DNA of 64,000 nucleotides from Phoronis australis (lineage: Eukaryota; Animalia; Phoronida). Shown in pieces: positions 19,271 to 64,000 of the stretch. The position numbers and the translations under genes were made by a program. The stretch's first letter is position 1, and each line of letters starts with the position of its first letter. The notes under the pieces were generated by a model. That model saw only the letters and a list, made by a program, of their open reading frames with translations. It searched no databases and was not told the origin of the DNA. The stretch covers positions 77,195 to 141,194 of the forward strand of contig NMRA01000494.1 in the NCBI GenBank assembly GCA_002633005.1. The letters run 5' to 3'.

Positions 19271-19271
19271 T

Positions 19272-33639: not shown

Positions 33640-33820
33640 CTAAACCCAAGAGAACCACATAAATGTTTTTGCTGGCAGCAGTTCAATAAATATTGTCTTG
33701 TATGAATCACTCAGTAGGTAAAAATAATACAGTGGCTGCATTAAAACATATGGTCAGGACCACAGCACGAGTCAGTAACTTATTGCCTGATTTGCAATAC
33801 GCCCAGCTTGACAGGCTCTG

Positions 33821-36800: not shown

Positions 36801-37904
36801 GTGCTATTACAGAGAGAGTGAGAAATAGCCAGGCATTAAAATCAGTAATAAAATCAGTGTTCGTATCACAAATTCATTGGGAAAAATGAGTGTTCTGCAA
36901 TGGACTAAAGTGAATTTGTATGTGAAAATGATGGAGAGTATTATTTTCCTACGTTTTGCATGTTACCAAAAAAACAAGAAAAAAAATCGGTTTTCGTATC
37001 ACAAATATACTAAAGTGAATTTGTATGTGAAAACATCACCATTTGTGTTCTTGAGCTGTTGAATTTTAGCTTAATTGATAAATATTGGATAGATATTGGA
37101 AAAACTTCATTACATGAGAAAACTGGCTTGCATTTAAGTTGGTTTTGCCAATTATTACTAAAATAAAGGGTTCTTTCTTTGATAAAAGTTATCAATAAAC
37201 ATTTACATTTATCTTCAATTGTCATTTCTGGTGGCTTTCTATTAAAGAACACCCTAAATCAGAATGGACATTGCAGATGTTGCAAATAGTGCCTTCTTTA
37301 ACATAAATGGGGCTTTAGATCAAATAAATTACGCCAACTTGTCATGTTCATTTGTCTGAAACATGTTCTTTATATAAACTATCACAGCATTATAAAAATG
37401 TTAATATTTTCAGTTTGGTTACCATGGATCAGTTAAAAACACAAATACAGTGCTCTTAACTTTATTTGGATTGACATGTGCGTTAACTTAAACAATTATA
37501 TTGAATTATGGTAAAAACTTTTCAATTTTGTTCGAGAATCATTGTGAAAACTGGCATTTTTGTTCATGCTCAGTCAGTGCTCCTGTTTAATGTTCACTTG
37601 CTAAATCATTGCAAATTAATTCCATGATAGCATGAAATTGTGCCAAATTGAAATAATTCAACTGACATCAAGGATTTCATTGTAATAATTGTTTTAATTT
37701 TTCTTTATTCAAGTGAACACAGAGGAATTTTGTTAGGAGATTCGGGCTACCCTTATTGAACGTTTCTAATGACGTCATTTATTAATCCTGGTGATGATTC
37801 AGAGGTCTCTTTCAATAACGCATTAAATTATGTAGAGCGAGAGTGTTAATTGAGCAAACGTTTGGTATTTTAAAGCGCCGTTTCTCTTGTCTTCATGGTG
37901 AGTT
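33821..37904 (+). mobile_element. Harbinger DNA transposon with 4-exon HARBI1-like transposase (exon 4 disabled; 3' end lost at N)
   Basis: Left end CTG|GGCCCGGTGCCTAATG with ACTCGA subterminal repeats. Exons 33977-34391 (FRRYRF..LLLTLRFLASG..KSTVGRAI), 35610-35725 ([23 protein letters not shown]), 36661-36772 (AKWPGSVHDSRIF) and ~37713-37904 (LLGDSGY, then a TGA and a frameshift, RARVLIEQTFGILKRRF; acceptor appears mutated). Confidence 0.92.
35034..35171. mobile_element. hAT MITE with perfect 8 bp TSD, in Harbinger intron 1
   Basis: TSD TCTCTCAG at 35026-35033 and 35172-35179; termini CAGTCTTGTAGTGG / CCACTACAACACTG. Its reverse complement aligns with the left end of the hAT at 17490. Confidence 0.88.
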
Positions 37905-37905
37905 N

Positions 37906-40900
37906 ATCACTGCCAGGAAACAGCTCCACAACACGTGCCATCTTCCAAGAATTCCGGGGAACGTTATCGTCAACAATTAGCCCAACGTCGTTGACCGATA
38001 AATTTCTGTGAGCACGTTTCCACTTTGAGCGTTCTTGTAGAGTGACTAAATATTCCTTTCGCCATCGATTCCAAAAGCAGTTGGCCAGATACTGCACACG
38101 CTTCCACATTTTGCGACAGGTAACATCACTTTCCTCGAATTTTCCTGGCGGCACCATCCACTGCGAGCGTAGTGTAAGAATGTGGTTCGGTGTCAACGCG
38201 TTGAAGTCATTTGGATCGTCGGTAACAGTCGTAAACGGCCGGCTGTTGATGATGGATTCGACCTCACAAATGAAAGTGTGGAAAGCATCGTCGTTGAGAT
38301 TTCTTCCATGTGACCTTAAAAGACCATTGAGTATCTTCCTGATAGTGCGAACTTGACGTTCCCACACGCCTCCATGGTGGCTTCCAGTCGGTGGATTAAA
38401 TTTCCATTTCACCTCACGGCTCAACAACTCATCATTGATCTGTTGCTCCAGCCTCAATTCACGGTCAGCTCCGCGAAAATTCGTTGCATTATCGCTGCGG
38501 ATTTCTTTCACTTCACCTCTCCGAGCCATAAAACGACGGAGAGAATTTATAAAGGAGCTCACATCGAGGTTTCTTGAGATTTCTACGTGAACAGCTCGCA
38601 TACTAAGACAAGTGAAGACAACTGCATATCGCTTGCATTCTCGTCGTCCTTCTTTCACCACAAACGGTCCCAAATAATCAACGCCCGACCGAGCAAAGGG
38701 GACGTCATAAGAGACTCTATCTGCAGGCAAGTCGGACATCTTCTGGCACGAAGTTGGAGCCTGTAGGCGTTTGCACGTAACACACTGTCGCAAAATTCGT
38801 CGCACATTTGAGTTGGCATGGATAACCCAGTAAGTTTCGCGTATTTTCGCTAGGGTATGGTTTCTTCCTGCATGTCCCAACTTCTCGTGTGCATCGCGTA
38901 TAATCAAATCACTTAGGTGACTATTCTTAGGTATAATTATTGGGTGACGTTCCGTAAATGGTATCTCAGCACACCTCAACCTCCCTCCAACAACCAGAAC
39001 GCCGTTAACATCAAGCACAGGATTGAGGGATACGATAGGGCTTGCTCTTGAAAGTTTCCCGCCGTTCTTTAGTGCTGAAATATCTGATGAAAATTCTTGT
39101 CGCTGAACACTTTTGATGATCACGATTTTCGCAACGTTAAGATGTTCAACAGTCAGTTGAGCGTTTTGGCAATCAAACTTCTTCTTGCGAGCCATTCGGC
39201 TGTCAACAAAACGTGCAATCTTTGGGGGATCATGTACATTCGTGGCAATTTCGGCCTCGACGACCTTTCTATCTGCAGCCCACCTACGCAATAAATCCTT
39301 GAAGTGCAATAACCACGCACATCCGCGTGTCAGCTTATACCAGCTTGAGTAATGTTGGATTAAAACAGTTATCGGATCTCCAGGGGAGTCAGTGCACATA
39401 CCGTATGAGTCGACTTTGACTTCAGGGTCAGTTTCGGGGAAACTTGTGACGATGGCCTGCGTTGGCCAGTTGGCTTCCGTCTTCCACAAGAATTCGGGTC
39501 CGTTCAACCAGCACGTGTTGATCAGCAGGTTCTCAGCACTTGTACCCCGTGATGCTACGTCTGCTGGGTTTTCGGTTGTTTTCACGTATCGCCAGTGACT
39601 GGGGAGCGACTTGTCACGAATCTGGCTGATTCTGTTGGCTACGAACACTTTGAATTGCCTGGCATCGTTGTTAATGTAGCGCAACACTGTCATGCTGTCG
39701 GTCCAAAATATGACATCGTCAACAGGAAACTCTAACTCATTTTCCATCATTCTGCCAATACGTGCGGCAACTGTTGCAGCGGTAAGCTCCAGCCTGGGAA
39801 CGGTGATGAGCTTAAGCGGTGCTAGTCTTGACTTCGCCATCAGGAAAGAACAATGTATACGTTCTGAGTCATCGACCTGTCGCAAGTAGATCACACAGCC
39901 GTATGCATAAGAGCTGGCATCTGCGAAACAGTGCAATTGTCGAAGTTTCACATCCCCGAAATCAACAGGCTTGAGGCAGCGGCCGACAACAAATGATTCA
40001 AGCATGGAAATCTGTCGTTGCCATTCGATGAATTTCGATCGGAAGTCGCTCGGAATTTCGTCATCCCATCCAACTGCGCTGCAGCAAAGCTGTTGAAGGT
40101 AACGTCTGGCCGGAAGCACTGCCGGTGCGGCGAAACCAAGGGGGTCGTAAAATGACGATACCATAGACAAAATACCTCGTCTGGTGAAGGAGTAGTCTTT
40201 CAGACGAGTCTTGAAAGTAAACACGTCTTTCTCAACGGACCATATCACACCCAAGGCACGACTGGCTGGCAAATCGTCAATGGCCAAATCTAGGGTTTTA
40301 ACTTCTTTGGCGCGGTCACTTTCAGGGACACCTTCAATAACGTTTCGGCGATTACTCAACACCTTCATCAGATTGAAACCACCTGCGGCACAGACGTCTC
40401 TTAGTTTGCGGACAAGGCGAACAGCTTCTTCAGTTGTCTTGACAGACCGTAGACAGTCGTCTACATAAAAATTACGCTTAATAGTGTTGTAAACCACTGG
40501 ATCGTCGTACGCAAAATCATCTGCTGTCTTGCGCAGCGCAAAATTAGCACAACTGGGCGAGGAGGATGCGCCAAAGAGATGGACAACCATCTGCAAATCT
40601 TCTGGCTCAGTGCTGTAATTATCATCTGGCCACCAAAGAAAGCGAAAATAGTCCCAATCGTGTGGCGGTACACGCACTTGATGAAACATGGCCTCTACGT
40701 TCATCATGACTACGACTCTCTCTTCCCGGAACCTGGTAAGCACACCAACAATAGAATTTGGCCCATATAGAAGGCAGTCGTTTGCGCTTTCCCCTGGCAT
40801 TTGGCGCTACAGTCAAATACAACCCGCACTTTGCCTGGTTTATTTGAGTTGTAAAAACCGTGGTGCGGGATGTACCGTACTTTGCCTTTCATAGGTTTCT

Positions 40901-43810
40901 GGTCGGGAGGTACCTTACGAGCGTAGCCTTTGCTCAGAATGTCGTTCATGAAGGTTTCGTAATCTTGTCGATAGGTAGAGTTGCTAAACAACTTTCTTTT
41001 AAGGCCTCTTGCTCTCGATTGGGCTATCTCTCGGTTGTTCGCAACAGTATCACTTCCCTCTCGAAAGGGCAATGGAAATATGTAATGACCATCTGCGTGC
41101 TGAACGCCTCGGTTCACAGCATGTACATGTAGGAATCGTCTGTCGTCTTGGGAGTAGACGGCGTCGTCCTTCTCGTTAGCAGCGTATTCGCCGGTAAAGT
41201 CGTATTCGAATAATTTCTGAAGGAGCTGGCTTTGACTGACTTCCTTCATTTGGTCGAATATTGACAGTTGTCTAAACATTTCTGTGGTTGGGTTTTCCGT
41301 CATAAACACATAGTTGCACGAAATAACACGCGTTGTCAAGTTCTGCAGTGCTATGGAAACGGGGCCGATGATCAACCACCCGAGTCGAGTCAACACGGCG
41401 TAGGGCCACCGTCTCTGCCTGGCACAACCTGTAGTGGTTCAGTCGCCTTGGCGCAGTTACTGCCGATAAGAAGGCCGATGTCAACATCAGAGTGGTCATC
41501 TGGAATGTCTATATGACGTAAGTAAGACCACTGAGTTGACCACATCTTGAGCGGTGGGAATTCCTTCTCTAGATACAGTAATCTTGAAGTGGGCGTATAC
41601 AACAGGGAGGTTTATAACGTTCTGGCCAATCAAATCCTCTGCCTCCGTTTCAACCTCTGATTGTCCGTACATGGTTGTGAGCTGAAGCCTGCTCGGCACA
41701 CCATTCACATTAAATTGACTTAACAGATCATTTGTCGCAAAACAGCCTGATGAACCATTGTCAAGGAAGGCATAGGTGACGATGCTATCTTCGGAATTCG
41801 CCTTCTTGATACGCACAGGTATGATCGGCATCATAAGTGTAGTGTTGTGTGATGTAGTGGCGAATGTACCCCTGCGATCACCACCACGATCACTTAATTC
41901 TGTGTTCGTGGTCGCATCTCGGCGTTCTTGTTGGGTATCATGATCTTGTCGCTTGTTCTGTTTGGCTGCTGCGGGTTGGCGCTTGGGAACTTCAAACCCG
42001 TCGATGTGCATAATGATTGGGTGTCGTTTGTTGCATTTTTTTGCATTGTCCTTTGGATCTACAATTTTTCGAAGAATNTAACTCTGTGTTCGTGGACGCA
42101 TCTCGGCGTTCTTGTTGGGTATCATCTTGTCGCTTGTTCTGTTTGGCTGCTGCGGATTGCCGCTTGGGAACTTCAAACCCGTCGATGTGCATAATGGTTG
42201 GGTGTCGTTTGTTGCATTTTTTGCATTGTCCTTTGGCTCTACAATTTTTCGAAGAATGTCCGGGTTTTAAACATCCGAAACATAATTTCCGTTCAATCAC
42301 AAATTGTCGTCTTTCCTCGTAAGGTTTCGCACACAAAGCGTTACAAACATCTACGCGATGGTTGCCGTTACAGTAGATGCAAGAGACAGTTTGATGCTGG
42401 GTAATGTTCACCTCTAATTTACCAGTTGGTCGCTTACCGAAAACTGGATCAGAAAAGATGAAGGACTCATCACAAACAAAGTTCACAAAATACTCGAATG
42501 TCACGTCACGAGTAAATCTGCCGCGAATCTTACTGGCCTCGCGCCGCCATCTATTTTGCATAGGCGCAGGCAGTTTTGACATGAGTTCTTGAAGATTTTT
42601 GGGATGGTCAAGTTGGATCAACTGATTAATGTCTTTCAAGGCATTATAAGCAGTCTTTAGAGCAATTGAAAAACGGGAAATCGGCACAGAATCTTCTAAA
42701 ACCAACTCTTGCTGTCGTTTNTGGGATCCGAGGAAAGTCCAAAAGTTTTTGAACGTATGCTGTTGCCACAACAAAACTATTGCCATATTGTTGCTCTGAG
42801 AGCCGTTTGGCTTCAGAATACCCATTGTACGTTGGCATGTGTAAACAGCTTCGCACAAGTTCATTCGCACCTCCTGAAGTATACTGCTCTAGATAATAAA
42901 GTTTATCAATCTCGGAATCCAGCTTGCTTTCTACGCGAACTTCAAACGCCCTGATGAACTGACGGTACTGGTCTGCATCCCCGTTGAATTTCTTTATCTT
43001 TGGTGTAGGCAAGGACCTTCTAGCAACGAAGTCCAAAATACCCGAAACGTTCTCGGCGCTTGGCATAAAATAACGAGAGTTCACAGAAGGTGGCGCTAAT
43101 GCGGGAGCGACGGATACAGCCGGAGGATAGTAACAAGTGCTAACAGCAGGTGTCGCCAATGCGGGCGAGGACGATGTAGCCGGTGGATAGTTCATAACAG
43201 GACGCGCTAGTGTGGGAGCAGCGGATGCAGCCTGCCACATAGTCGCTGGATCACAAGGTACACAGGGTGCAAACCTAGGCACTGCACACACAGCAGGTGT
43301 CGACATAGACACAGTCACTGGATCACAAAACGAAGATACGGGCACAAAGTCTGATGCAAAGCCAGGCACTGTGGACACAGCAGGTGTCGACATAGTCACA
43401 GTCACTGGATTACATAACGAAGATACGGGCACAAAATCTGATGCGGATACATTGAGTGACGAACTGTGAGGGTTGCGAGAGGGGGTATGCTGCTCACTAA
43501 CGTCATCGAACCCAGCTTCCAACTCAGCCAACTCAGCGTGGATCTCAAGTTCCTGACGCTTGAAACTTATTATACTGTCCTCCTTGCGTCGTTCCGCATC
43601 CAAACGTAGTTCTTCTAAAACCAACTCTTGCTGTCGTTTCAGAATGTCTTGCTTAATTCGCAGTTCAGCTTTCCTCGCTCGTTGGGTGGCTCTTAGGTCA
43701 CGCTCGGTTGGCTCCCTATTCACGGTATCGATGTTGATAGGGGCATTGTGTAACTCGTCCACTGTTCCTGGATTCATATCCAAACTCTTGGTAGTCTCTT
43801 GAGCAGTCAT
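37906..43810 (-). mobile_element. BEL/Pao LTR retrotransposon gag-pol (frameshifted, 3' end lost at N)
   Basis: Gag DUF1759-like IKKFNGDADQYRQF..KLYYLEQYTSG; three zinc knuckles (CIYCNGNH, CFGCLKPGHSSKNC, CKKCNKRH); protease YAFLDNGS; RT YIPHH..KPGKVRVVFDCSA and NFYVDDCL; RNase H HCFADAS, VPRLELTAA, FWTDS; integrase HHCC, GVDYLGP, RSDNATNF, GGVWER; C-terminal FWNRWRKEYL. Confidence 0.97.
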
Positions 43811-43821
43811 TTGAAACAAAA

Positions 43822-44116
43822 TGTAGGAGCCATGGGCATTGAACACACGGGATAGTCGGATATGATACGTTTATTTTCAACAAGGTTGACGTTATGCTTA
43901 CTGTCCGACAAGGCCGGTTTCACTGAAACAAATATAACGAATAATAAGTCTTTGGAAATACAGCGTTCACGTTACAATACAATAAAGATATTCCACGTAA
44001 TACAGCATGGGCTAATTAAACAGTCTTACACAATACGAGAAACAGCCAGTGAATTCTACGGTAATATGCGGAAAAATAGTATAAACTTACAATGATATAG
44101 GCTCTAGGCTCCATAA
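43822..44116 (-). repeat. Putative 5' LTR of the BEL/Pao element
   Basis: On the minus strand it ends GGCTCCTACA just upstream of the gag ATG (43810), with an imperfect inverted match at 44107-44116. It contains AATAAA (43875-43870) and a GTAAG..TTTCAG intron-like segment (44090-43923). No second LTR is available to confirm. Confidence 0.55.
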
Positions 44117-46496: not shown

Positions 46497-48586
46497 ATGT
46501 GTGCTGTACGTCACTGAAGTCCATACCACAATAGAAAATACATTTGCACCACGAACTGCTGTCACATTGAACGAACATTGACTGATGCTGATGCATCTCT
46601 GCCACGTTGTCTCTGCGTCATATTTCGCTAAACTCATCATTTTGAGAATATTTTGGGCAAACGTTTTGTTAAAAAAATGTTCTGTAAAGTTTTGTCAAAA
46701 TCTGTTAAGCGGTTTTAGCAGTAATCGAAAGTCAAGAAGAACCCTGTGTACGCATAAGAATGTTGGGAAAGTGTTTCTCACCAACGGGACCCCCTTGACG
46801 TATACGGGCGCCGGAGCTGTGCCTCCCCCCTCGACAATACTCCATCAAAAATATGCACCCTTAAAGAACTTGAAAATAAACTCTGTGAATTTCAGAAAAA
46901 GAAAATGTTTTTATAACACTAAAATGTTACATTTTTCTGCAGTATCATAAAATTATTTCTTATGCTTATGGTACCAGCTGCTTGCAAGAACCTTGCAAAT
47001 GTCAGTCGGGACTGCGATGACCATGTACTGAGTACAAATTTAACTTAATTTAATTTAGCTACCTCTCAAAAATAAACCAATGTACACGTTAATACAAATA
47101 AAGCTCAAACATTTTCTTGGAAGAACTCACAAAACCCAGGGGATGCCCAGTTTTATGTTCCCCCGGTTGCTCGTCACAAATCTGTATGACTTCGAGAATT
47201 GCTTATAGTATTCTGTTTAGATAAACAACACGTTTCTTGTTTCCAATTTATATATTTTCAGCAATATCAATTTTTTATGTTTCAAGGCAGGCCACTGGAC
47301 CACATTACAAAGCATTACATAAGCACTTCTGTGCGCATGCGCACACTTTTTACATTTTGACAATAGATTCGCGTCTTCGATAAAAAGTTCTTACTCTTTT
47401 ATACCTTTGATTACATTATGTTTACAAAAGTACCATTGGCCATATTTATGATAGGAAGTAAGTATTTTTGGCAAAGATCGTTATTTGTAATTAATTACTC
47501 AAATGAGTCTGTTAACCAGCAATGTCAATCTCCCTCATTTCACAAGCGCGTCTACCCGTTTGTGTAGGCAACTCTAACAAAAATTTACAGAGAACCATTT
47601 TTACATCCTTCTACGCATGAAAATGCCACGCCTCGCAGTAGTACATGGGAATATGTTAGCGCTGAACAGTTCCAACCAAAGTGTATCTGCAATAACAGAA
47701 AAGGTTTGCATGTCTTTTTAGCACAGACAATGATATGCAAGATTTTTCTGCCAGGTTTATGTATTTACCGAAATCGACTGATGGTAGTAAAAGACGGTGC
47801 CTCAATGAACTTAGCTGCAAGATGAAATTCAGAAAGTCTTCTTCGTCCGATCCCCATATAGTTTAATAGAATAACGATTTTTGCCTGTCTGAAATTACTC
47901 TCCATGACATTCTTCGACGAAATTTCGACAGTTCTACAGGTTGTCCTAAAACTACTCACCAATTCCAATGACAATGAATGCGTGTTTTATTGACTTAGGA
48001 ACAGGATTAGTGCTTTATAATTCACAAAGAGCAGAGGAAAGAGGATTCAACTCCTAACAGGCCAAGGAAGAATTGTCTTTGCACAACCTTGATGTGTTTT
48101 AGTTTCCAGTGGAATTGCGTAATGAATTTTCATTCTCCAAAATTGAGTCGTTTGTCATTTCTGTGCATACAGAGCTTGCAATGGCTCACGCACTCACTTA
48201 CAGTACAAGGTGTAACCGCACAGTAGGTCCGGGCGCAGAATTTGACCCACGGGAATTGGATTTGATCTCGTGGCATTGTAGTGAAGTGTGAGTATAAATT
48301 GGGCCAATATACTTTCGCTGCCATTTGTTGACACTGTTCAAAATGACTTTGGTAAACCACCTACAGAAGATGAAATCACGCACATGGCATTTACTGCCTC
48401 ATTGCTGATAGTATCCAAACTTCTATTGTGTAACCTGCTGAAGCAACGCAATGGAGCGACATGACTTGCGTGCAAAACCACATCTCAGAGTAATCTTAAT
48501 AACCCAAAGAATGTAGTGGAATTTGAGTGAAAACACAGAGGTAATACAGTTTTAGTATGCATACAGGCAAACTGTCAGCACAATAA

Positions 48587-51500
48587 CTAACTGGGTCTAA
48601 CACGACCAAAAATATCCCTGCATAATACTGGGTGGCTGGCATGGAGAAAATCATACACTGCCTCTATCCTGATGCCTTGCTCAACCATGCGAGCCTTGAT
48701 TTGATTTTGAGGCACTGAGTGATAGTCTGGCAGATCCGGGAATCCACGTGTTTGTATCACAGCCACGCTAGCCTCCTGTTCGTCATCGGGTACAAAACCA
48801 GGACTTCCTGAGCTGCCACGTCCAAATTTAAAACTTGTTCTGTAAAGTGTTCGCCGTGGGTCGTCGATTTTTGAGAATGCCTCAAACCCTGGAGGAAATA
48901 CTTTCTGAGCCCATTGCTTGAGGTCGCTAATCTGAAATGTGTAAACGAGTGATTTATCATTTGTTGCATGCAATCATTGAAAATTTAAAAATATGTCGCC
49001 TATATTCTTGCGTTCGTTGCAAACCGTGTAACCGAACTTTAGCCAACTGTCCGATTGATAACAGTACAACATATCCATTCAGCTGATCGACGTATTGAAT
49101 TCTGGGGCCCCTAAGAGACCTTTGCTCATTATGGACAATACTAAACCGGTAAAACCGCACAAAGAGCACAGGGTGCTAACCATGCGTCCCAATTTAAATA
49201 TAAAAGAGATACAGGATAGGGCATCATCTGGCGACAATCACAATAACTGTGACCGGATAAATAAAAAGGAACTATTTTGTCGACGTAGCAGGTTTCTGAT
49301 GTTGAAAACCAGCCATGCTTCAATCATTCACTGATGTTTGTCCATGTTTTTTGCGACAAATATTGTGTCATAACAGACAATGAGTCACTATCTGAAACTG
49401 TATGCAGCATCCAGGCTTGCGTTCAGTAGACGCTAGGACCTACGCTAGGACCTAGCTAAAACCTAGTCAAAGTCACGTGTTCTCATTTAAAATGCACGGC
49501 AACATTTCACGTATTCTTGCGAAGTCTTGCTTTTTAGCGAGGCCCTAGCGTTACTGAACGGGAGGCAGCTATGCACCACCACTGGCAATTTTGAAATAGT
49601 TCCGCACCTTCACACTTTCAGAGCTTATGATTGGCTAACGAGGCAAGACACAGAGCCAGCTCGATATTACTCAATATGGTTATAGCACTAGGAGGGCATA
49701 ACATTCTGCATTTAAGTAAACATTGTATGACTGAATAACGGGGTGTTCCGAATTTGAGGATATGTCTAGCCAACCAGACGTCCAGGGCCCCTGATCTGGT
49801 CAAATGTTGAAATGACTTGAGATGCAACTAGATGGCCATCTGTGTTGTATTGAAACATGTGTAATATTGTTCCTCTATTTTGCAAAGTTTAAGGTGAAGT
49901 AGGACCCTATGAAAATTTCCATTTTTAGGTAACTTCGGAACATCATCTCTCTGTCGGAAAGGGCTGAGCGTGAAACCCTCTGATATTATTCTTCAACGAT
50001 GTTTCCAAAACGAGCTTAGGTATATAATGGCATTTAATAATTTACCACTTGGTAGATGGGTGGCTTTCAAAATAGGCGGGTTTTTATGATTTCATGATGA
50101 ATTCTCAAGTTGCGAGCGACAAAACGAACTCGTGTTTTAGAAAACTGTAACAGGGTTTTTGAAACATAATATCAAATAAACACCCTCAACTCTATTGGTC
50201 TATTTGCACCAACCTCTAGCTACAACGCCAATGTAAACATGCCAGAGGCTGATGTAGACAGATGATATCACTACATCACCACATCAAACCGGTTTTAGGA
50301 AATCAAATGAAGTTTGATCGAGTTATTGATGATGGTGTTTTGCAATGAATGTTCCTATTTTTTTAAATTTTACTAAAAAGACTGGGACACATGACACGAT
50401 TACTGACGGATTGGTTATAAAGAAATTCTACAGACTCCTCCACCTTCAGAAAATATGCTGACATATAGTTTATATAGTTTTCTAGATAATTTGTTAAATA
50501 CTTGTTGATAGGTTCCCCATAACCTTGATATCTGTATTACAATAGCACGCGGCGGGCTTGAAGCAGACTGACCCGCTTACGTGACCATTTAAAGAGCAGA
50601 TGTATGATGCCCACAGTGAGTGAACGTTAGGCATGTAAATTACTTGTGCAAATTAATTATGAACGACGTAAATTGATTATTTGCAGCACTTAACGGCGTA
50701 AAAGTAATTATTTAAGTGCTTACTTAGCCTGCGTCGTAATGTGACCGGGGAAGACGGAAGGTTTAGTCAACAACAATCACCCTCTTGATTTAAGAATTTT
50801 CGGACTAAGTTACAATTTTTTCACTGATCAAGTCCTTAAAGGATTATTGTCCTGGTAAGTGAAAGAAACGGACACGTGCTTCACTATGAATGGCTTTGCT
50901 GTACAGCCAATCACCAGATGCTGCAGAAACACGTGACTACTTAGCGTGAAATGATGTCATCATCGTTTACCCTTTTCAGGAAATCTGCTGGATCCATAAG
51001 GACAACAGGACAATGGACTTGGACAACTTGATGGCCAGTTTCGTCTGAATGTCCAGCAAAATGTATATGTTGTTGTTGAGAAATAGCCTTGAATTTTGTC
51101 AATGCTGGCGGTAATGAGTGCTTGTTGATCTGTTCACAGTTGGTGAATGCTGCCGTAAGAGGCGAGTTGAAATCCAGTTCCAATACAGCCACATCTAGCT
51201 CTTCATTGTATGCTACCAGAGACCGGATAGGTATTGCTTTTGGTGTACACTGCTCTAATCGCTTGTCGAAGTAAAAGATTGCTGCGTTGTTATTCACTGT
51301 AAAACACAAGTGACTGAGATAAGCAGGTGAAGACTAATTGTCGTTTCATTACTAACGCAAATCCAAACCAATCAATGCCAGAGCCTAAACTTTAAGAACT
51401 AATTCCCAAAAATTTCTTTTATTTGAAAAAATCACGAAATTTTGTGTCGGAATTAACATTGCATAGTTCCTATTATAGTTTTTCAATGTGCAAAATTGAT

Positions 51501-52090
51501 TAAATACTGCGCACTTGCCGTCATTAACAGCCTTTATTCCGTTCACTTCGTATCCTCGGAACAAAGTTCTACACTCAACTGAACATTGGTGAAGCAACTG
51601 AACAACACATTGTTAAATGACACACGCTTTATTTTGAAACATACTTGTCTCATTCTCAAACGGAAATAAAATGACGCAATAATACTGCCACAGAGAGCAA
51701 GCTGCAGACAATCCTTGTCCTTACATGTTTGTACTTCCATGATAATTCGGAGACATGTTGACCTGTTCCATGTACTTCTGAACCAATGTAGACAAATTGT
51801 ACAATAGCAACTTACCACACAGGTAGATTTAACCTCGACAATCAATCAGCCATCGATATACTTACTGGGAACATCAAGATTCAGCAACTTATATACGTGA
51901 TAGTTCGTCATCACGTAAGTGAGCCCGACTCGGAAGCCCGACCCTACCCCAAGTCCATCTGACCGCTTAAGTTGGGCTACTGTTGATACTGCATTGGTCA
52001 GAGACTTTAGGAGGTGTGCTGAAATCACGTTGTTTCCCCTCTCTAAAAGACGAGACTGCATTTTTACGGGAACAGAGCGTGGGAAATATT
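48587..52090 (-). CDS. FAM111-like trypsin-fold serine protease domain (3 intact exons of a larger gene)
   Basis: Exons 52090-51866 (GSGFRVGLTYVMTNYHV; catalytic His), 51296-50971 (EELDVAVLEL; Asp; IHFAGH) and 48931-48587 (LYRTSFKFGRGSSGSPGF; Ser; VEQGIRIEAV; stop). GT-AG with matching phases 1/1/0. Confidence 0.85.
49415..49566. mobile_element. Small MITE (Harbinger-like) in protease intron
   Basis: Inverted ends CGTTCAGTAGACGCTAGGACCT / AGGCCCTAGCGTTACTGAACG, flanked by CAG. Confidence 0.55.
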
Positions 52091-52160
52091 CTGAAAGTTA
52101 AAAAGATGCATGGTAATGACACTTCGAAAATGTTGCAGTAAATGACTAAATACTGAATAC

Positions 52161-53933
52161 CCAGACCGTGCTCTTTTTCAAAAGCATGCCTTCTTTGCCA
52201 AGTTTTCTCCCTAGGCTGAAAGAGTAACAGCCGTCTGGCTGGATCATACATTGCAGTGTTGCGACTAATACAACCACACATATCGTAAACTTTTGGGTTG
52301 CCCAGTTCCCCCACAAAGCAATTTACAAGCAGAACGCATTGGGCCTACTTTCCACTTGATCAGTGAACAGTTCAATAAAGTGTGCCAACAAAGTTGTTCA
52401 TGTGATTAGTTGTTTGAAACAAACACCTGTATCTTGGAATTCTCACACTGAGGCAGATTTAGGTGCAGTAAAACCGGTTTTTATTAAAGTTTATTTTTTT
52501 ATACATATTCTAAGTTGGAATATTGAAAATATGCATAGTTTGTTGTACTTTTGTGGTGAGGATTGACACAATTTAAGCATGCCGAGAAGAAAGTTCATTT
52601 TACACCTCCACACCAGTTTCCATTAGGCAAGAAGTATTACATTTAATAAACAAGTTCCAAAAATAAACTTAAAACAATGACATAAAATTGGCCTGCATAG
52701 TAGGTCTACTTGGAAGGTAATGCTCTGTTTTAAAAAACACGTGGTTCGCCATGTCATATACGTTCATGTAAAGTCTGGTAGTAGACACTTACAAATATTT
52801 CTTGCAAAGTAGACCGGGATGTCATGTCAGTTTGACGCTTGTTGTCAAATGTTTTTTCCATAAAAAATTCAATAATCAAGATATCTTCATTCCAACTGGT
52901 GTATGTCTTTGTGCCCAAGTTTATGCAGTGACTTTCACTTTAATTCTCATAGTGAATACGTTTACAGGTACATGTTTGTGTTTCATCAATATTAAAGTTC
53001 TGTTTGATGACTTCCAACTAGGAGTCACTGCAATAGAAAGTTTGGCAAAATGTAATATTCTGAGAACATTAACATGTCAGGAAAGTTGAAACTTTCATTT
53101 CCCAATTTCCTCACATGTTGATTTATATGCAGAATCAAGTGGAACTGTATAGCCACGTAATGGAGCGTGTGCACCTAATTGCAGATCTTCGACTGTTCGA
53201 CAAATATTCGACCGGTTTTGAGAAAGTTTCATCTTTATCCGGGCGAGTAACGCATACTCTCTGACTATGGAGAAGACACCTGCCTTTTGTTTGGTCTTGC
53301 ACAGCTCGCGCTAATAATGGTTGGGGTACTACTGCAATTTTTATATGTCCGGATATTGCATTTGCCGGTACTCCACCGACTGTTCCATCTATGATTGCTG
53401 TAGGGGAAGAAGTGACATTTATTAAACGTTTGGAAGAGTTGGAATGATAAACTAAAACGCCCTTTTCCTACCCGAGAGTGTTTCAGCATATTAAGTCAGC
53501 TCAATTGTCTAGTAAGACTTCTGACACATATTGCATGAGTACTTCACTGTATATTTGCGATATCAATGACTATCTTCGAATGGGAAAAAATACAACCGAG
53601 GCCCGCACCCATTTTATGATACTGCGTCGGCGGATAATTAAAGTAAACAGAAGTATAACAATCGGTTTTAGAAAATTTAAAAGAGATGTTATAGGATATC
53701 TCGTTGAAATGAGGAAGTGCCTTTGTCGTCTCAAATGTATACAGTAAAGCAACTGGTATCCACAAGACTGTGAGAAAGTTCACGTTTCAGTGTAGGTGTT
53801 CGATTAAGATAATACACACCAATCTCCATTTCTTCCACAGGCGATCTTGAACGAGTTTCAGACTCTCTAGACAGAACAGGCCAGCGGAAATGGCCATCCT
53901 CGTACTCAGTACTTTGAGTAGTAGATTTGGAAG
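52161..53933 (-). CDS. Middle exons of the DED-protease gene (linker plus FAM111-type ubiquitin-like region; one exon with premature stops)
   Basis: Phase-compatible exons 53933-53820, 53397-53280, 53027-52793 (LEVIKQNFNI..CINLGTK..DILIIEF; TAG near its start and TAA at 52942-52940) and 52344-52161 (weak acceptor). Confidence 0.5.
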
Positions 53934-54519
53934 CTGAAACTGGTAAATTCCATCAGGTTAATAATTGCATTTGTCAGGTAAGTTTTGTAGTACCAAATAG
54001 AGTGTCATCTAATTGTCTGAGTTCACCAAGATCCCACCGTAGTATTTATCATGTGGCTGAGGTCTAATTCATAAAGAGAAAGCGTCTGGTTGAACAAGCG
54101 TTTGGGTTTACATATGAACATTTCATAGTCGCACAGATTCTTACGAAATATACATGTACGTACTCAGTTCGTATCACATTCTCGATTTACGTCAAATGAC
54201 GGTAGTTCACAGACATTTGTAGAGAGTGTACTGACTTCACAGCCTTGTAATGGAAGCCTTGCAACTGACTTTGGTTTCAAAATAGAACTTTGAAAAATTC
54301 TTCAGGAATTGATTTTTAGGTCTTATGATCAACCTCTTGATCCCAGATTACGTTAAAAGTGGCCTTTAAGCTACTTATGACACATTTCACTTCTAAAAAA
54401 TTTTAATAACTTCAACACATCTGTTTACACACTTTCGTGTCATTGTAAAAATATTACAAGTTTCGGCATATTTTTGGGGTATGAAAAAGACTTTCACCTT
54501 GCCATCAGTAACACTTTCA

Positions 54520-55795
54520 TATTTTCATTCTCGAGCAACAGATGTGTTTAGTGCAGAGTACTGTTGTTCCTGGGTTTTCTTCAATTTTATTCTTATTCTT
54601 ATTCTTATTCTTATTTTTCTTATTCTTCTTCCGACCAACTTTGAGGCTTAATAACTCCAAATTGGGTGCAGCTACATTCTTTGTATTCAGCATATCATTT
54701 TTGACCGTACATAAATTTTGATTCGTTTTGTAATCATATTCCATATTGCACCAGAAGAAGGCATTTGGTGCAAAGGTCATATAATTTTTAAAATTCTACT
54801 CCTTCTCTATTTTAAAAGCAATTCTTTTCAAATTCGGCACACAGGTATAAGTCAATAGGGAAATTTAAAAAATACTTATCTAACTAATCGGGTCATCGAA
54901 TCAGGTTAAACAGTTCAAAGGTCATTAGGTGCAAACTAAGATTTTGAGCTAGACACTTCAGATTCACAGGTCTGATTGTCACAGGTACTTCAATACGGAA
55001 TGCAAAGTTTCAGGTTATTTAGTGCAAACATGGGCTCATGAGGTGCATTTTTTTCTGAAAATTTGACCTATTCATTCACCTAGTATTCTGATGTGTCAAC
55101 TGTTAGACAACTGTGATTCTCAGCATTAAACACATTTTTCATGGGCTTTGCAATAATTCTCCTAAAGATGCTTATTATGCACCGGATAGGGTAAATTAGT
55201 GCAAAGGTCATCTAACGTTCAAAATGTTACATCAGACGTTTTTCAAGGAATTATTTTCAATTTCAGCACAATGGGGTAAGCCAACATGCCAATTGAACAC
55301 CCTACTTTACTACGCAATAGGTCTAACCAATCAGGAAAAATAGGTCAAATGTCGTTGAGTGCAAACTAAAATTTTGAGCTAGATACTTAAAAATAACATA
55401 TCTGTTTACTAAATGCAATTGAGTTGGAATTGTCTATTTTCAAGCCATTTGGTGCACCCATAGGGTCATTAGGTGCATTTTTCTTCTGAAAGTTAGACCA
55501 TTTCATTCATCTTGTTTTCTGAAGCGCTTAAAGTAGTAAAACGTCTGTGATTCTTAGCATTAACCTGACTTTAAGTCGAGTTTACACTTATTTCCTCATC
55601 GGGGTTCATAATGCACCGGAAGAGGTCAATTAGTGGAAAGGTCAACAAAATATTAACATGTAATTTCTCCTACAATTTTAAAGAATTCCTTTTCATATTG
55701 GTGAACGGGTTGCTGTCATTAACTTCACGAAACAATTCCAGTTAAACGCACTCGCAGAGTCCATTATTGTCGCGCCGTGACAATAATCTTTCTAG
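54520..55795 (+). mobile_element. Non-autonomous Helitron/Helentron-type element with internal ~430 bp tandem core
   Basis: 5' (TTATTC)n microsatellite at ~54586-54630; two diverged core copies (GCAAACTAAR..TTGAGCTAGA at 54931 and 55361); 3' hairpin ATTATTGTC..GACAATAAT (55763-55787) followed by CTAG|TT. Confidence 0.72.
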
Positions 55796-57079
55796 TTAAC
55801 GTTGATATTCAAACGAGTCCTAGTACAGTGATCGTTCTGTTTTTACACCCAATGTGTAACACAGCAACCGCTGTGGCTCTTGCGTTTTCTCTCTATATTC
55901 ATAAAACCTTTCAAGTCATTTCTCTGTTGCATGTCACCATTTCAATGGCTTTGTGTTCTTACATGGTCATTGTTTGCAACCTGAATCTCTAATGTCGACC
56001 AGTTCACTGTTTATTTTTTACTTAGTTATTCTCAGTGTTTAACAGAGATGTTTTAGGATTCATAATAATGGCAAACGTTTGGCCACAGGGACCTTTATTG
56101 TTGGTTACCTTTATCAGTTTGGATCATTTTTGATATTTATGTATTGTTGTTTGAAGACATATTTCATTTAGGACCAGCGGTGAAAATATGTTGGCATTTT
56201 GATTAAAAAGTGACAAAAATCCAGTGGGACAAAATTGGACTCTCCAATGGTATTTTACGTATCGTTCTTGCTGTACTTCGGAGCAAGTTTTCCGATATGC
56301 AAAGTTGACCAATCCCAAGACACTGGTCGTTATTAACTGTTATTTTTCCGTTCCGTTCGTATACTCTGTAACTTGCAGCACGACCTTCTTTGTTTTTCAT
56401 TCAAAACAGGACTAGATAGGACCTCCGACTTATTTTTTCATGTGCTAAATGATAAAGCTCGACATCTTTTGGGAATTGGAAAGTATCCAGTGTGATCGGC
56501 AGTCACCATCCAATCTCCTGCGATCTAGGTTGGTTTAAGCCAACAGCGGGAGTGAACAGCGTATTAGTGCAACGTCGCCTACTGACCGCGCTCAATTTTG
56601 CTTTTTGAGCCGTTTACACAGGTTTGATTTCGGTATTCCTTGAAATTTTAAGAAAAAAACGTTGGTATTACTGTAACCACAAGGAAATCTTCTACTAAAT
56701 TATTCATACAACTCAGCTTAAGTGAATATTTGAAACTTCTTGCATTCCAGACTTTCCAAACTAAAGGCAATATAAACCACTTGTATAATTCGTGTGTGAT
56801 CACCGGGATGTTCTAAAAACGGATGAATTTGACGAAATCCGTTGAAACGGGATGGAAAACCCAAATATCCTCTCCATTTTGGCAACACACATCGCTTCCT
56901 ATTCTAACAGTAATGTATGTTACGAGAGGTAAACATGCATAATTCAAATGGAAATAGTTCATTTCCTATAAGTTCTACGCGGAACTTAAAAATGGCTTTC
57001 ATTTCATTGTCATTTCCAGTTGATAATTAACTAAAACGAGTGTTTCTTAAAATTTGAACGTCATAGATACTAATTACAA

Positions 57080-57600
57080 TCATCTTTATTTTATGTGAAC
57101 TCCATTCCCCGCAGGATGATGGTAATTTTGAAGATAAGTTACGTGCTTCCACGCGCACAACATCAGAAAGCCACAAACTATTCTAAAGCTTGTGCTCAGC
57201 AGCTGCAGAGGGAATTTGGTTTCTGCCGAGATTACAACATGAAAGTGACCACTTCTGCCAGCTACAGCTCTCCCCATTGATTGTAAATCATCTGGGATGG
57301 ACGGCCGCGGGGAAATCACACACTTGTTTTATCAATGTGTTGATACATAAATCATAATTTGTTGCAACGCACAGATGTTTAATCCCGCGGTTGTATTTTA
57401 CAAGACTTTATAACCAAAAAGATGGTCACGATACTTTCAAAACGTCCTTGTTGTAAATAAAATTATTGCATTTACCTTGACTGATAGTCGCAATCGTTAG
57501 TCACTTAGATAATGCAGCAGGAAGGCGATTTGTTATTTGATATTCAAAATTGCTGTGTCATCAGCATAAGGAAAATGTTCAATAAAATGTGTTTGAAACG
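57080..57600 (-). mobile_element. Highly decayed LINE reverse transcriptase fragment
   Basis: Minus strand PYADDTAIL at ~57545-57572; surrounding frames are broken. Confidence 0.3.
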
Positions 57601-57841
57601 TGTAAAACCACTGCGTACCTTGTTTTTGACAAACAAAATTGTCAACATCATATAAACCTTCCTTTTATCGCACTGCAAGTCGCAATCGTGAAATTAGTGT
57701 CCAATGAACACTTGAGAAAAGAACTTCAATTGGAGGTCTAAGCTCCAGCGACTTGAGTCCAACATATCAATGTACGCACCACCATTATGTCATGTGCACT
57801 AACTGATGAGTGGCTTGCACAAACTCCGACACTCCATAGGT

Positions 57842-59014
57842 AATAGGCCTTTTGCGAGTTTATAACAATAACGCGAGATTATGTGAGACTTAACTGTGAC
57901 GTCACGGGAAGTGGGGCAAAAGCTTGTCGTTTGGTCATTTGCCCAATACGGTAGCAGAGTGTATTCTGTTATTGTCTTCGAATTTTTAGCCGTTTATTTC
58001 GAAAAATGTCCAAAAGCATTGCTGTTATGGCAAATGAACTTCAGATTCGCACTACAATACGTTCTATCGCGTTCTGTACTAATTTCGTCCCGTGTATTTT
58101 AAACGGCGGTAGGCGAAATTCGCTCACTGATAAAGTTTTCACCTCGTCAAAAATAAATTCTACACCTGAAATTAGCACCTAAAAGGCTCTTACTTTCTTC
58201 AGTGACTCTTTCTGCTTCTAAACATATCTTCGATGAAGCATATATATGGGAATTCAGGTGACTTTGGCGAAGAATTCCAACTCCACTTTTGGTTACTGTT
58301 AACTTTGTCCGCGCGCGCGATAACCACAATTAAGTATTTCAACTGAGTCAGGTGAGTATGAGGCAAAGGCTAGCGCGAGACTGAGCGAAGCGCGAGATCT
58401 GGCGCGTGACCTGGCGCGTGACACTTGCAAAATAGCATGAGAAAATATCAAGTGAAAATTGTAAGATTTGTGTCCCTTGCACTTTTTGTTCGTCAACAGG
58501 CGTGATTTCACGTAACCTCCTCAAAATGGCGGCTAGTGAGAGAAACTCGAGAGAACCGCGAGGTTTTCATGAATATGCTCAAGTTATTTGTAGACTAAAT
58601 TGTGTCCAGAGTCAGGGTATGTGTTAATTATGACTTCCTGTGCAGATATGCATGTTTCATTTTATTTTATTTCCTGTATTTTGAAGTGAATATCTTTTTA
58701 CGGGGATACACTATCGCCCCTGTATGCCTGCGCCATTCAGGCCTAGAGCGGGTTAAGTTCCAATTTCAGTCCGTTCACAGCTTCGCACAACATAACAAGT
58801 TCACATTTTCTTCGTCCATTCACAGTTATTCCACGACCCATCTACCATATCTTAAGTTATTTTAACGTTTTAAGCGTAAAATTCACCATAAGAACTCCAG
58901 TAAGTTTTAGCGTTTGTAGCAAAGACTCGGGGCAAAACAAGAGCAATATGGCGGGTTTTGCCCCCTTTCCGATGACGTCACAGTGACTAACGAGAAACTC
59001 GCAAGTGAGCTATT
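57842..59014. mobile_element. 1.17 kb non-autonomous TIR element
   Basis: Ends AATAGGCCTTTTGCGAGTTT / AAACTCGCAAGTGAGCTATT, with inner inverted blocks ACTGTGACGTCAC..GGGGCAAAA / TTTTGCCCC..TGACGTCACAGT. Confidence 0.7.
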
Positions 59015-59296
59015 GATGGGCTATAGACTGGTTAAATATAAAGTTGACATAAGCCCCACAAAAGCAAAGCATTGCCAATATTCCTTATCAATAGATTGAC
59101 AAAGACGGTTATGGCATACATGTACTTATATACATTAAAACGACTTTCCTATTCTTTGAAACAAAAAAGAATGCTGTGCAACCTGCACAGCTGTCAAGAT
59201 GTTTTGAAGAAAATTTAAAATTTCTCGTCAAAGTCTTGAAAACGGGCAAGCGTGACCTACGCCGAGGATCGGAATGTACGTTTTTATGAGATTTGG

Positions 59297-59361
59297 CATG
59301 GGCGGCGCATCACTAAAAATTGGGGCTATAAAACTTCAGTCTCGATGGTGCCCCGCCCATG
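59297..59361. mobile_element. Minimal MITE, CATGG TIR family
   Basis: CATGGGCGGCGCATCA ... TGGTGCCCCGCCCATG; only 65 bp long. Confidence 0.6.
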
Positions 59362-60410
59362 TATTTGCGTATGGATGTTTTGTCGTTTTATGCGTTTATC
59401 TTTCAAGATTAACGACAGCAATGCATAGGCAGGTGGATGAACGAAGATGGGTTGAAAATACCAAAAAGTTTAGTATCCCTTTACAAAAAATACGGAAATC
59501 GAGCAGCAGTATTCGGCATCAGTACACAAAAGGTTTACTTTACTTAAAGGTATTGATCAACTTTGCATCTCTCAGAATATTTTTTACAAAACGTCTATTG
59601 ATACCAGCCGTTCCCAGGGATCGAGATATAGATTTCTTGTCAGTGGGAGTAGGAAAAACCAAGGTAGCTTCAACTTAAGCTTCTCAATGTCGCACCTTCC
59701 CTCTCTCCAACAACATGACTTAAGTACGTCACATATGCATGACCGACAGCAAGTTTGATCAGTTTAAAAGTTAAATTAGCAAAAGGCAAACGCTCAACAA
59801 GTTGCCTTAAATCTTTCCAAGACAGACAATAAATACTTATTATAACGTTATCAACGTAAACATGAACGATTCAAAAGAGTGTTCATCAATCGCTGAGAAG
59901 TTGTAGCTCTATTTTAACAATTCAACAAATATACTCAAAATAAATCTTGTATGCATGCAGAGTAAGTAATCAAATTTACAAACAGAAATCTCTAAACAGT
60001 GGATTGCGCAAGGTCAGCATACAAGGCTGTCATAACTTTAAACTAAAATCTCAAGTGGCTTGGGATGAGCACACACGGCTGCAGCACTAACTTAGGGTTA
60101 AAACCAAGCAAAGTAATTGCTTCAAATTCTTACTAACTCTAAGCAAAGCAACTTCTTCGCAATTAGTGAGAAATTGATACCCGTGACAGCGAATACAGTG
60201 TTAACTCTGAAACTGAAAGATTCTCACGATGCAAGCTACACTAAGCAAGGGCTTTGCTTGCGACCCTGGCAAACTCTAGTTAAGTTATACGTGAGCTCGT
60301 CCTTTTGCCTCTACGAAATAAAAGCTTGCACAAGGACATGTAGACAGATGGTACTTGATTGAGAACAACAAAATTTTCACAGAAACTCCGCAAGAATATT
60401 ATCTACGTAC

Positions 60411-60586
60411 CCATAATTTTTCGTATATCAACATCCAGTCTCTCCACATTCTCCTTAAGTTTGATCAATTTGTTGTCCTCCAGTAGTTTAATTAACTTGG
60501 TGTAATTTCCCATTCCAATGATTCCTTGCTTGTCAAGATGTTGGAGGAGTTGGGTAGGTGATTTGAAGTTATCTTGCTCCGCTGCG
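60411..60586 (-). CDS. Exon encoding the C-terminal part of a death effector domain (DED)-like fold; likely 5' part of the FAM111-like protease gene
   Basis: TTTCTTTACAG acceptor and GTACGT donor around the open frame AAEQDNFKSPTQLLQHLDKQGIIGMGNYTKLIKLLEDNKLIKLKENVERLD, which fits the DED pattern S..(D/Q)L..L...G.I...N...L..LL. It ends in phase 1, compatible with the exons at 53933 and 52090. Confidence 0.7.
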
Positions 60587-62774
60587 CTGTAAAGAAACTA
60601 AAACCGCTAACTCTCCCCGTACCCAAGGTAAATGACGACTGATTTTTAATCATGACTTAAATATGATTAATATTTGACTAAAATTAGTCACAAATGGAAT
60701 ATAAAATTATTGCCATCCACATTATGTGAGTGTTTCTGACTATAGTGTGGCCCATAAAAATGTGAGTATGGCCGTTACTATAATGTGACTAATATAATTT
60801 ATCTTTATCTTTAGGAATTCGGCTAGATTGTGATCAATATACTTTGTGAGCTTGCCCGTGAATAACATGGGACTAATACCCGTAAATGTATATTTGAGTA
60901 TACGGATGTATCTAAATTATGACTTTCCGGCCAATACCAGAGGACAAGCTTAGGGACTCTATGTTCACGTATATGTGGTTTGATTGCCTTAGTTCTGTCC
61001 AAATTATGGGAAATACATTATTTTGGTCATTCTGTGCAGGATGGTCAGGAGATTGTCCTTGGCTTTTTTCTTTGGCTTAAGGATTTATATATATATCTGA
61101 TATTCTCATAATTTATGCAAAGAAATATTGTAATCTTATCCAATACCACTGTTTATGTTTTCAGCGCAAACCTTGTATTTTAGAACGATTACATCCGCCA
61201 ACCAGCAGTCGAGGAAGATTTTAAAGCGTGCGTGTAATATTGATTGATTTCTCTTAATATAAAAATATTCGTAATTTAGACAAATTTGTAACATATAATA
61301 AAGAATACAATGTTTTTCCATCAAGTGTCAAGACCTCTAACTGCTCCAATTCCATAATTGGCACTCACTCAAACTCTAGACTATGACGAAATATCCTTAA
61401 ATTCTGCCATATCCTATCCAGAATTCATGTCATCTGGGAATATCCCAACGAGAAGAAAAGTCCAGTTGGGACATTCCCAGATGAAATGAATTCAAGATAG
61501 GGTATCTCAGTAATATTCCTATGTATGTGGGTTAACCTATTTACCCCATATATTTAGACTTATTTGCATCAATGTGGCAATACTTTGTCGCCGGGTGACC
61601 CGCCTTGTTGTTATATGACGTCACGTGTGCAGAGTACGGTGCCAAACCTGGTTTAGCTACAAGACAACCTGTGAAGTGTTGAATAACCAGTAAAGTTTTA
61701 TTTCGTAATAAATCCATCGGAATTTTTAGATTGTGAAATGTACAAGCAAAAGCATTGAGCCACTCAATTATATCAAAACTTTGTCGGAAACTTAGAGAAA
61801 ATCCACCTGGGAAAAATAAAAATTGAAACATTCCCTGAACTGTGTTGTCTGCAACACTTTGCTATAAGCTTCCATGAATTTCTTAGTTTTGTTGGTCTAT
61901 TAGCCTCTGGGCTGTACATACATGTAGCAATAGAAGCATTTCCCTGTATTTATCACATCACTGGAAAATAACGTTGGAAGTTGTGCTAATTTGAAGAACT
62001 TGAGGTAAAGACTATCTCAAAGCAGCTGTTTTACACCACGGACAGTAACGGAGAGTTGAACGTGGCGACGCACTGTCTCAGTAAAAAACGCATACTCATT
62101 ATTAGGTCTTAATTTCATGTAACAGTTCAGCTCCCAGGGTAGATATGGGGCATACAACCATAGCCAAACGCTTTGTTGGGTTTTGAATGAGATTCTGGCA
62201 GAATTTAGTAGCCGGTGACCTTACTCAGTTTGACCTATTTACATGTACATGTATGATTACCCAGATTGAAACTTCAGAGAGGCCCAAAAATAGCCGCCTG
62301 ATCACCGTGCTTTGGAAGTTTCATCGGTAATTTTTTTCGCTTTTAGAGCAGTAAAGCTGCTTTTTCGGGAACGATGCCTTGAATTAATGGTTTACGTAAC
62401 CCAAATGATTGAGCCCAATAAAATTTGGCGTTGTACACCAAATTTACCCCACCACCAGACTGCACACCAACCGTTAAATACGGATTCTACAGTTGAATAC
62501 GGCTTTTAGCGTGATATTCGGATTGGCTCTACTTTCCCGTAAATCACAGTTCAATACGTCACATATAAATTGACCATATTTTCATATGCATGTGATAATA
62601 TGTGACATTCGACCAAGGGCATATTTTTGTAAAGTTACTACATGTTTTATTAGGCAATAGAAGTAACAGAGAACGTGACTGAACCTAATCAAAGGAATCA
62701 TGGGCATTTCCCAGTCAAATTTTTGTCATGAACCGTCTTGCGTCGCTAAAATGCAACAAAGATATGTGTGACCT

Positions 62775-63240
62775 CCCTTACAAAAATGAACTTAAATTTT
62801 CATCGAAAAACTAAAGTTTTTGGTCTGAAAAACTTAAGTTTTCATTCACGAAAACTTAAGTTTTTGGCGAAAACTTAAGTATTTTGGAACAAGTTTTTTG
62901 GGACGAACTTAAGTTTTCATAACTTAAGTTTTCAAAAACTTAAGTTCTGAAAACTTAAGTTTTCCAAAAACTTAAGTTCTGAAAACTCAAGTTTTTCAAA
63001 AACTTAAGTTCTGAAAACTTAGTTCGTTCCAAAAAACTTGTTCCAAAATACTTAAGTTTTTGGAAAACTTAAGTTTCTGAAACTTAAGTTTTTGAAAAAC
63101 TTAAGTTTTGGAACAAATTTTTAGTAACAAACATAAGTCATCAAAACTTAAGTTTTTGAAAACTAAGTTTTCCGAACATAAGTTTTCAAGGAACTAACTT
63201 TTGAAAACTGAAGTTTTCTAAAAGCAATAAGTTTCAATAA
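62775..63240. repeat. Array of palindromic AAAACTTAAGTTTT motifs (fold-back/subterminal-repeat type)
   Basis: About 20 degenerate copies of the self-complementary motif, starting at CCCTTACAAAAA. Confidence 0.85.
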
Positions 63241-64000
63241 GACAGGCATTCAAAAATTTCGACTTTCACTAAAACAAGAGTGGAGTACAGTAACAAATTT
63301 AATAATTCTCATCAAGATTTAACAAACTAGAGTTATATTAACATTTCATTAACAGTGATTATTTGCCGAAAATAAAATGCACTTCCTAAAATACACTAGT
63401 TCTTTAAAAAAAGTGAACATAAGTGAAATATCAAAATCTTAAAAACCATTTCAAAATCAGTTCATCAAGAGTCATGCATACAATGCAGTGAAAACTAAAT
63501 GAGGCTAATAATATAATTGCATCGTTTCAGTCTATGACAATTATGCGATAACTGAGGGAGCAAAATGGAATGTGCAAACAGAGAAATCACTACCAAATCA
63601 TGAAACACAACCAAAGAAAATGTGATTACAAAGCCAGGAAGGACTACAACAAAAGTCTACGTTTCAACAGCAGACTTTTTCAACTAAAATTACAGCAATG
63701 ACACCAAGAATAACAAATCACTTAATATGCAAAATCCAAGAATATCCGCAGAGACAAAAGCATAACATAAAACGTAACAGGTAACTAAAAGTTTATCGAC
63801 AATGGCCACAGGTCTGATTTTGGGAAGTACAATCCTTATACTAGAAATAGTGCTTAGAATCACCTGTAATTGTTTTCAACCTTAAAAATATCAATTTAAA
63901 AGTCAAAGTTTCGTTTTCGTGACAATCATAATAACAGTAAATCCAAAACACTCCATGGTGCGAACAAGTTTCACTAAAAGTAAGTACAACCTGGTTATAC

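Follow-up and report, generated by a model that had tools for sequence, protein, structure and literature searches.

The locus described here raises the question of whether an animal gene can place a death-effector domain (DED) ahead of a trypsin-fold serine protease, in the position where a caspase might be expected. The window, a 64,000-nt stretch of contig NMRA01000494.1 (assembly GCA_002633005.1, positions 77,195 to 141,194) from the phoronid Phoronis australis, contains eight candidate exons on its minus strand; the first resembles half of a DED, and the last three carry a serine protease catalytic triad. The two parts likely belong to one gene. On balance, we favour the reading that this is one damaged member of a multigene family of DED-proteases, in whose intact members clustering of the DED would activate the protease. 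The segments, in window coordinates, are as follows.

Exon 1, 60411..60586, minus strand: 58 residues forming the second half of a DED-like domain; enters in phase 2 and leaves in phase 1.
Exon 2, 53820..53933, minus strand: candidate Ser/Thr/Glu-rich linker; phase 1-1; open; no Pfam match.
Exon 3, 53280..53397, minus strand: open; strong acceptor; phase 1-2; no Pfam match.
Exon 4, 52793..53027, minus strand: canonical splice sites; broken by two in-frame stops; resembles a ubiquitin-like (UBL) domain by eye only.
Exon 5, 52161..52344, minus strand: doubtful; weak acceptor; needed solely for phase after exons 3 and 4.
Exon 6, 51866..52090, minus strand: opens the protease domain, with the catalytic His at 51899; its acceptor (phase 1) fits exon 1 or exon 2.
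Exon 7, 50971..51296, minus strand: catalytic Asp at 51195.
Exon 8, coding part, 48587..48931, minus strand: GSSGSP motif with the catalytic Ser at 48811; ends at the stop codon.
Probable long 3' untranslated region, 47000..48586, minus strand: RNA depth 2-11 per bin in 3 runs; AATAAA at 47991; reaches 47000 or beyond, 47000 being the limit of the region used for RNA mapping.

A first-pass annotation of this DNA had proposed GT-AG borders for all eight exons, and these are borne out: AG precedes each of the eight segments and GT follows all seven internal ends. The phases are compatible through the whole series, the lengths sum to 574 codons, and exon 8 closes with a TAG at 48589-48587. All exons lie on the same strand and in order, and the phase 1 donor of exon 1 is compatible with the acceptors of both exon 2 and exon 6.

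The protease end of the series is the best defined. The catalytic His, Asp and Ser fall in that order in one frame, spaced by 45 residues (His-Asp) and 115 residues (Asp-Ser), and the full triad claimed for the last three exons is thus present. Language-model features (atlas) place exon 8 in the trypsin clan (0.95) and give Trypsin/Trypsin_2 as the best named cluster for exon 7 (0.92); these two scores count as one source of evidence. Exon 6 has a weak serine protease match in the PDB (E=0.86), and the structure model of exon 8, with a predicted local distance difference test (pLDDT) score of 45, is too poor for a fold search. Scanned singly, exons 6-8 have no match to Pfam NAL1_N or Nal1_C at E<=10.

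Exon 1 does resemble a DED, as had been suggested, in its C-terminal half. It matches the Pfam DED model (PF01335) at E=2.8e-4 over model positions 33-78 of 82, with 21.5 bits against a cut-off of 35.9. A single-sequence structure model of its 58 residues has three helices (pLDDT 71), and the sole Foldseek match to that model at E<=10 is the caspase-8 DED, a weak one (E=6.1); sequence searches of the PDB gave no DED match. The N-terminal half of the domain was not found in the 49 minus-strand frames from 60687 to 64000, and it probably lies beyond the window end. Other upstream and intron frames, covered in scans of 65 and 64 frames, yielded no Pfam match better than E=0.01. Because no other Pfam domain at E<=0.01 occurs in 64 minus-strand frames of the stretch that separates exon 1 from exon 2, exon 1 is left with no evident alternative partner.

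Transcripts were drawn from one contig set (X1) and three raw-read runs (X2 to X4), with 18-19% of each raw run used; a search for runs containing this sequence listed none recorded as RNA, and the raw-read runs were chosen by species label; a first mate on the plus strand was read as minus-strand RNA, following the convention of most stranded libraries. Exons 6-8 are spliced in this RNA: the exon 7-8 junction is crossed by 18 reads in 3 runs and by 1 contig, and the exon 6-7 junction by 7 reads. The junction reads carry a base unlike the window, and the contig differs from exon 7 at 32 of 324 bases, so the spliced RNA comes from an allele or a paralog. A further 272 reads, belonging to a protease paralog, diverge from the window at 51042. 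Reads on exon 1 fall into two groups, matching 60455-60549 or 60463-60529 and diverging on both sides, where their loose ends, read by eye, run on into similar coding sequence. The two groups represent two paralogous DED transcripts, both expressed; no transcript of this copy's own DED exon was seen in the reads mapped. With two DED transcripts and a protease paralog, the family is multicopy and expressed. The codon-position pattern of the paralog differences did not single out the DED frame and was not used as evidence. One of the DED paralogs is present in X1 as a contig 2153 nt long, in which the DED match occupies positions 1250-1344; the ~1250 nt upstream of the match could accommodate a second DED or further N-terminal domains.

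Other transcripts cross the same region. An alternative junction into exon 8 (49332->48931, minus strand; 6 reads, X3 only) would give a transcript without the His and Asp, and the exon ending at 49332 adjoins a highly transcribed repeat at ~49414-49566. There is also antisense spliced RNA on the plus strand at 51228-53839, with a GT..AG intron of 2610 nt (5 reads, X2 and X3); it overlaps exons 7 and 2, and plus-strand depth in X2 and X3 continues to ~57800.

The contrary observations concern the open frame, which bears on the chain as first proposed, and the transcript link between the two domains and the similarity searches, which bear on the favoured reading. The first lie in exon 4, where the chained frame meets a TAG at 53020-53018 and a TAA at 52942-52940. 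The phases of the proposed ~574-codon chain therefore stand and its open frame does not, and this copy cannot encode a DED-UBL-protease protein. All three frames of exon 4 hold stops, and among the 37 candidate exons that would provide a stop-free exon 4 through other splice sites, taken without chaining, none is conspicuous by eye. It could be argued that the gene is intact, that the stops come from errors in the assembly or from a private null allele, and that the common allele encodes the full DED-UBL-protease protein. The canonical splice sites of exon 4, the closing of phases across exons 3-5, the five Ns and frameshifted elements in the assembly, and a contig-length hint that fits the full chain (see below) would all suit such a gene. 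It would, however, require two separate base errors within one exon; the acceptor of exon 5 is also poor (pyrimidine fraction 0.29 vs 0.53-0.82 for the other seven exons), and read depth on exon 4 is too low for any base call. We regard an intact gene as very improbable. Open frames of the length of exon 5 are common here, with 10 in 6.4 kb of nearby intron. Sixteen chains retain exon 1 together with exons 6-8; four of these are in frame and two are stop-free: exon 1 joined directly to 6-7-8 (357 codons), and 1-2-6-7-8 (395 codons). Judged from its sequence, this copy is limited to a truncated product or, if exons 3-5 are skipped, to a DED-linker-protease form.

The second group of contrary observations comes from the RNA. 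The joints 60411->53933 and 60411->52090, which the first-pass annotation had proposed to look for, have no supporting read. No junctions among exons 1-6 were found among the 15 of 23 joints listed, and at the low depth available no read or contig joins exon 1 to any of exons 2-8. At 80% likeness, none of the 49 reads on 59520-61170 fits along its full length. Depth is zero in the bins holding the two borders of exon 1, and no read reaches either border, while exon 6 is covered ~6-10-fold; the exon 5 bin has low minus-strand depth in two of four runs. Such a pattern would also be compatible with a locus in which exon 1 were an orphan, or part of some other overlapping or decayed gene, and the protease were a separate DED-free FAM111-like or Trypsin_2 gene starting near exon 6 or at exons beyond those listed. 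Exons 6-8 are expressed in X1 and X4, where exons 2-5 have no depth at 90% likeness, exon 6 has an in-frame Met ahead of the domain, and the 6.5-kb gap between exons 1 and 2 is full of repeats; one coral and one lancelet FAM111, moreover, are described only as lacking UBLs in the part of PMC9798293 that treats them. On the other side, the phases are compatible, the strand is shared, no other domain exon lies downstream of exon 1, and expressed relatives may diverge too far outside the protease to map. We consider two separate genes unlikely.

The X1 contig with the DED paralog provides a weak hint of a joined transcript. Given the exon lengths as proposed, this contig would extend into exon 6 and stop at window position 51977; a contig alignment at 52009 lies 32 bases from the contig end, which places that end at 51978 or 52040. 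Its depth of 54 is similar to the 49 of the protease contigs. This fit is given little weight, since it is off by one base, allows two readings and was noticed post hoc.

The third group consists of similarity searches. The score of exon 1 falls below the Pfam cut-off and covers half a domain only, and exons 6-8, scanned singly, match no Pfam trypsin model. The claim of a FAM111-type protease found no match by any tool: none of the three protease exons matches FAM111A in the PDB at E<=10 (single exons, a low-power test), and the triad spacing of FAM111A is 54 and 102 residues, where the corresponding values here are 45 and 115. Single-exon queries returned no homologues among 77, 172 and 45 candidates (short queries, mostly microbial collections). 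Three HMMER matches among representative proteins were all to tandem-repeat proteins and were judged spurious, the sole metagenome locus matched was a bacterial chance match, and viral contigs gave no match to the short exon queries.

The FAM111 and UBL labels depend on motif resemblance. Exons 7-8 may be FAM111-like, and exons 3-4 may be like the first FAM111 UBL. The S1-lining residues of FAM111A are Phe538, His556, Phe560 and Glu573 (PMC10920703). When these are aligned by eye, Phe560 and Glu573 have plausible equivalents in a Gly-Phe pair and in a Glu that follows the catalytic Ser; His556 is replaced by Gln and Phe538 by Arg. As to the claimed ubiquitin-like part, exons 2-5 and the exon 4 read-through have no UBL match in Pfam, and with X at its stops the read-through matches no Pfam model at E<=10. 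Exon 3 may contribute the opening strands of a UBL-like domain. Vertebrate-type FAM111 proteins have two N-terminal UBLs, and here there is one UBL-like segment, seen by eye and containing two stops. One coral and one lancelet FAM111 lack UBLs, and no ortholog has a single one, according to the portion of PMC9798293 that surveys them.

In the favoured reading of a damaged copy from a DED-protease family, a DED would lie N-terminal to an intracellular trypsin-fold serine protease with FAM111-like motifs. In intact members, the DED would associate with itself or with DED platforms of the FADD or NLR type, and clustering would cause the protease domain to dimerise, with ordering of the oxyanion hole as in human FAM111A. 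Once active, the protease would take the place of a caspase and cleave cell-death or antiviral substrates. DEDs are known to cluster caspase-8 on FADD platforms (PMC8195603), and activation driven by a DED is plausible because FAM111A itself is activated by dimerisation: it is active only as a dimer, and dimerisation orders its oxyanion hole (PMC10920703).

It may instead be that the fusion is real and the DED is not a death switch. The protease would then dimerise through its own N-terminal helix, as FAM111A does, and would serve in antiviral restriction or in the removal of DNA-protein crosslinks, with the DED as a targeting or autoinhibitory module. The N-terminal region of FAM111A appears autoinhibitory (PMC10920703), and there are nucleolar regulators among the DED proteins, for instance DEDD2 (PMC8195603), both of which are consistent with this. 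We think it rather unlikely, however, since the changes among the DED paralogs are mostly non-synonymous (10 of 12 changed codons), and a multicopy family with such changes is easier to reconcile with an immune arms race than with housekeeping repair; both points are suggestive only.

Several known systems resemble parts of the proposed architecture. Like FAM111A and FAM111B (PMC9798293, PMC10920703; PDB 8S9K, 8S9L), it would have a C-terminal His-Asp-Ser trypsin-fold domain with a long Asp-to-Ser spacing, and no secretion signal is apparent in the exons seen. Unlike them, it has a DED-like exon upstream and at most one UBL-like segment, broken in this copy. Comparable in plan are two amphioxus proteins, XP_002598013.1 (FN3+FN3+TRADD-N+coiled-coil+Death+Trypsin) and XP_019613648.1 (TRADD-N+Trypsin), both in supplement file 4 of PMC8195603, which similarly combine a death-superfamily or adaptor module with a C-terminal trypsin-like domain in an invertebrate. 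Their modules are a Death domain and TRADD-N where ours is a DED, and their proteases may or may not belong to the same subfamily. In PMC8195603 these fusions are tabulated, without discussion in its trypsin passages or its section 11. The same paper describes bacterial death-like domains, bDLD1 and bDLD3, fused to trypsin peptidases; there too a death-like adaptor recruits a trypsin-type effector, although those fusions belong to prokaryotic operons with NTPase cores and to a different adaptor family. Caspase-8/10 and c-FLIP also have DEDs N-terminal to a protease, and induced proximity is proposed here by analogy with them, but theirs is a cysteine protease of another fold preceded by tandem DEDs, compared with the half DED visible in this window.

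A death-fold adaptor coupled to a trypsin-type effector is therefore an already known theme. The first-pass annotation could not tell whether such fusions had been catalogued; death-fold fusions to trypsin have been, in amphioxus and bacteria (PMC8195603), and the DED-FAM111 form was not found. No paper on a DED-FAM111 fusion emerged from a literature search whose scope left out most subscription papers. The main text of PMC9798293 contains no instance of 'CARD' and three of 'death', all on cell death, and that of PMC11874512 contains neither 'trypsin' nor 'FAM111'. DED shuffling in amphioxus is described in PMC2575513, the available portion of which does not mention 'trypsin'. DED-protease fusions may already be annotated among InterPro architectures.

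The surrounding DNA is animal-like, with a G+C content of 39.6% over the window, and includes spliceosomal introns and mobile elements. A frameshifted Pao/BEL retrotransposon (Peptidase_A17, RVT_1, integrase zinc finger, DUF1759) occupies 37870-43870 on the minus strand, and a DDE_Tnp_4 transposase with an internal stop lies at 32062-34459, also on the minus strand, beside a plus-strand frame that by eye resembles a second transposase fragment. Duplicated fragments at 17905-20263 on the plus strand appear by eye to be a hAT/ZNF862-type element and have no Pfam match at E<=0.001. At 54765-55644 there is a diverged tandem pair of ~440 bp (70% identity), with RNA mainly from the plus strand, and at 62788-63233 short palindromic AT-rich units are arrayed so as to form large imperfect inverted repeats. 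No further copies of exons 1-8 are present within the 64-kb window.

In humans, FAM111A acts as a protease in antiviral defence and in replication. Since the copy described here is damaged, the value of the locus lies in its expressed paralogs. A broader proposal, which we offer as a doubtful possibility, is that these represent an expanded, fast-evolving invertebrate DED-UBL-FAM111 family, serine-protease counterparts of caspase-8 switched by DED filaments, in which case the dimer activation of FAM111 would have its origin in an immune or death switch, and the FAM111 UBL would be older than the vertebrates. An invertebrate member with a UBL, if confirmed, would revise the claim, made in the evolutionary account of PMC9798293, that UBLs arose towards vertebrates. 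If the architecture is real, the natural DED fusion would constitute an induced-proximity trigger for a FAM111-type protease, an idea that is directly testable, and it would add a non-caspase effector to animal death-fold signalling.

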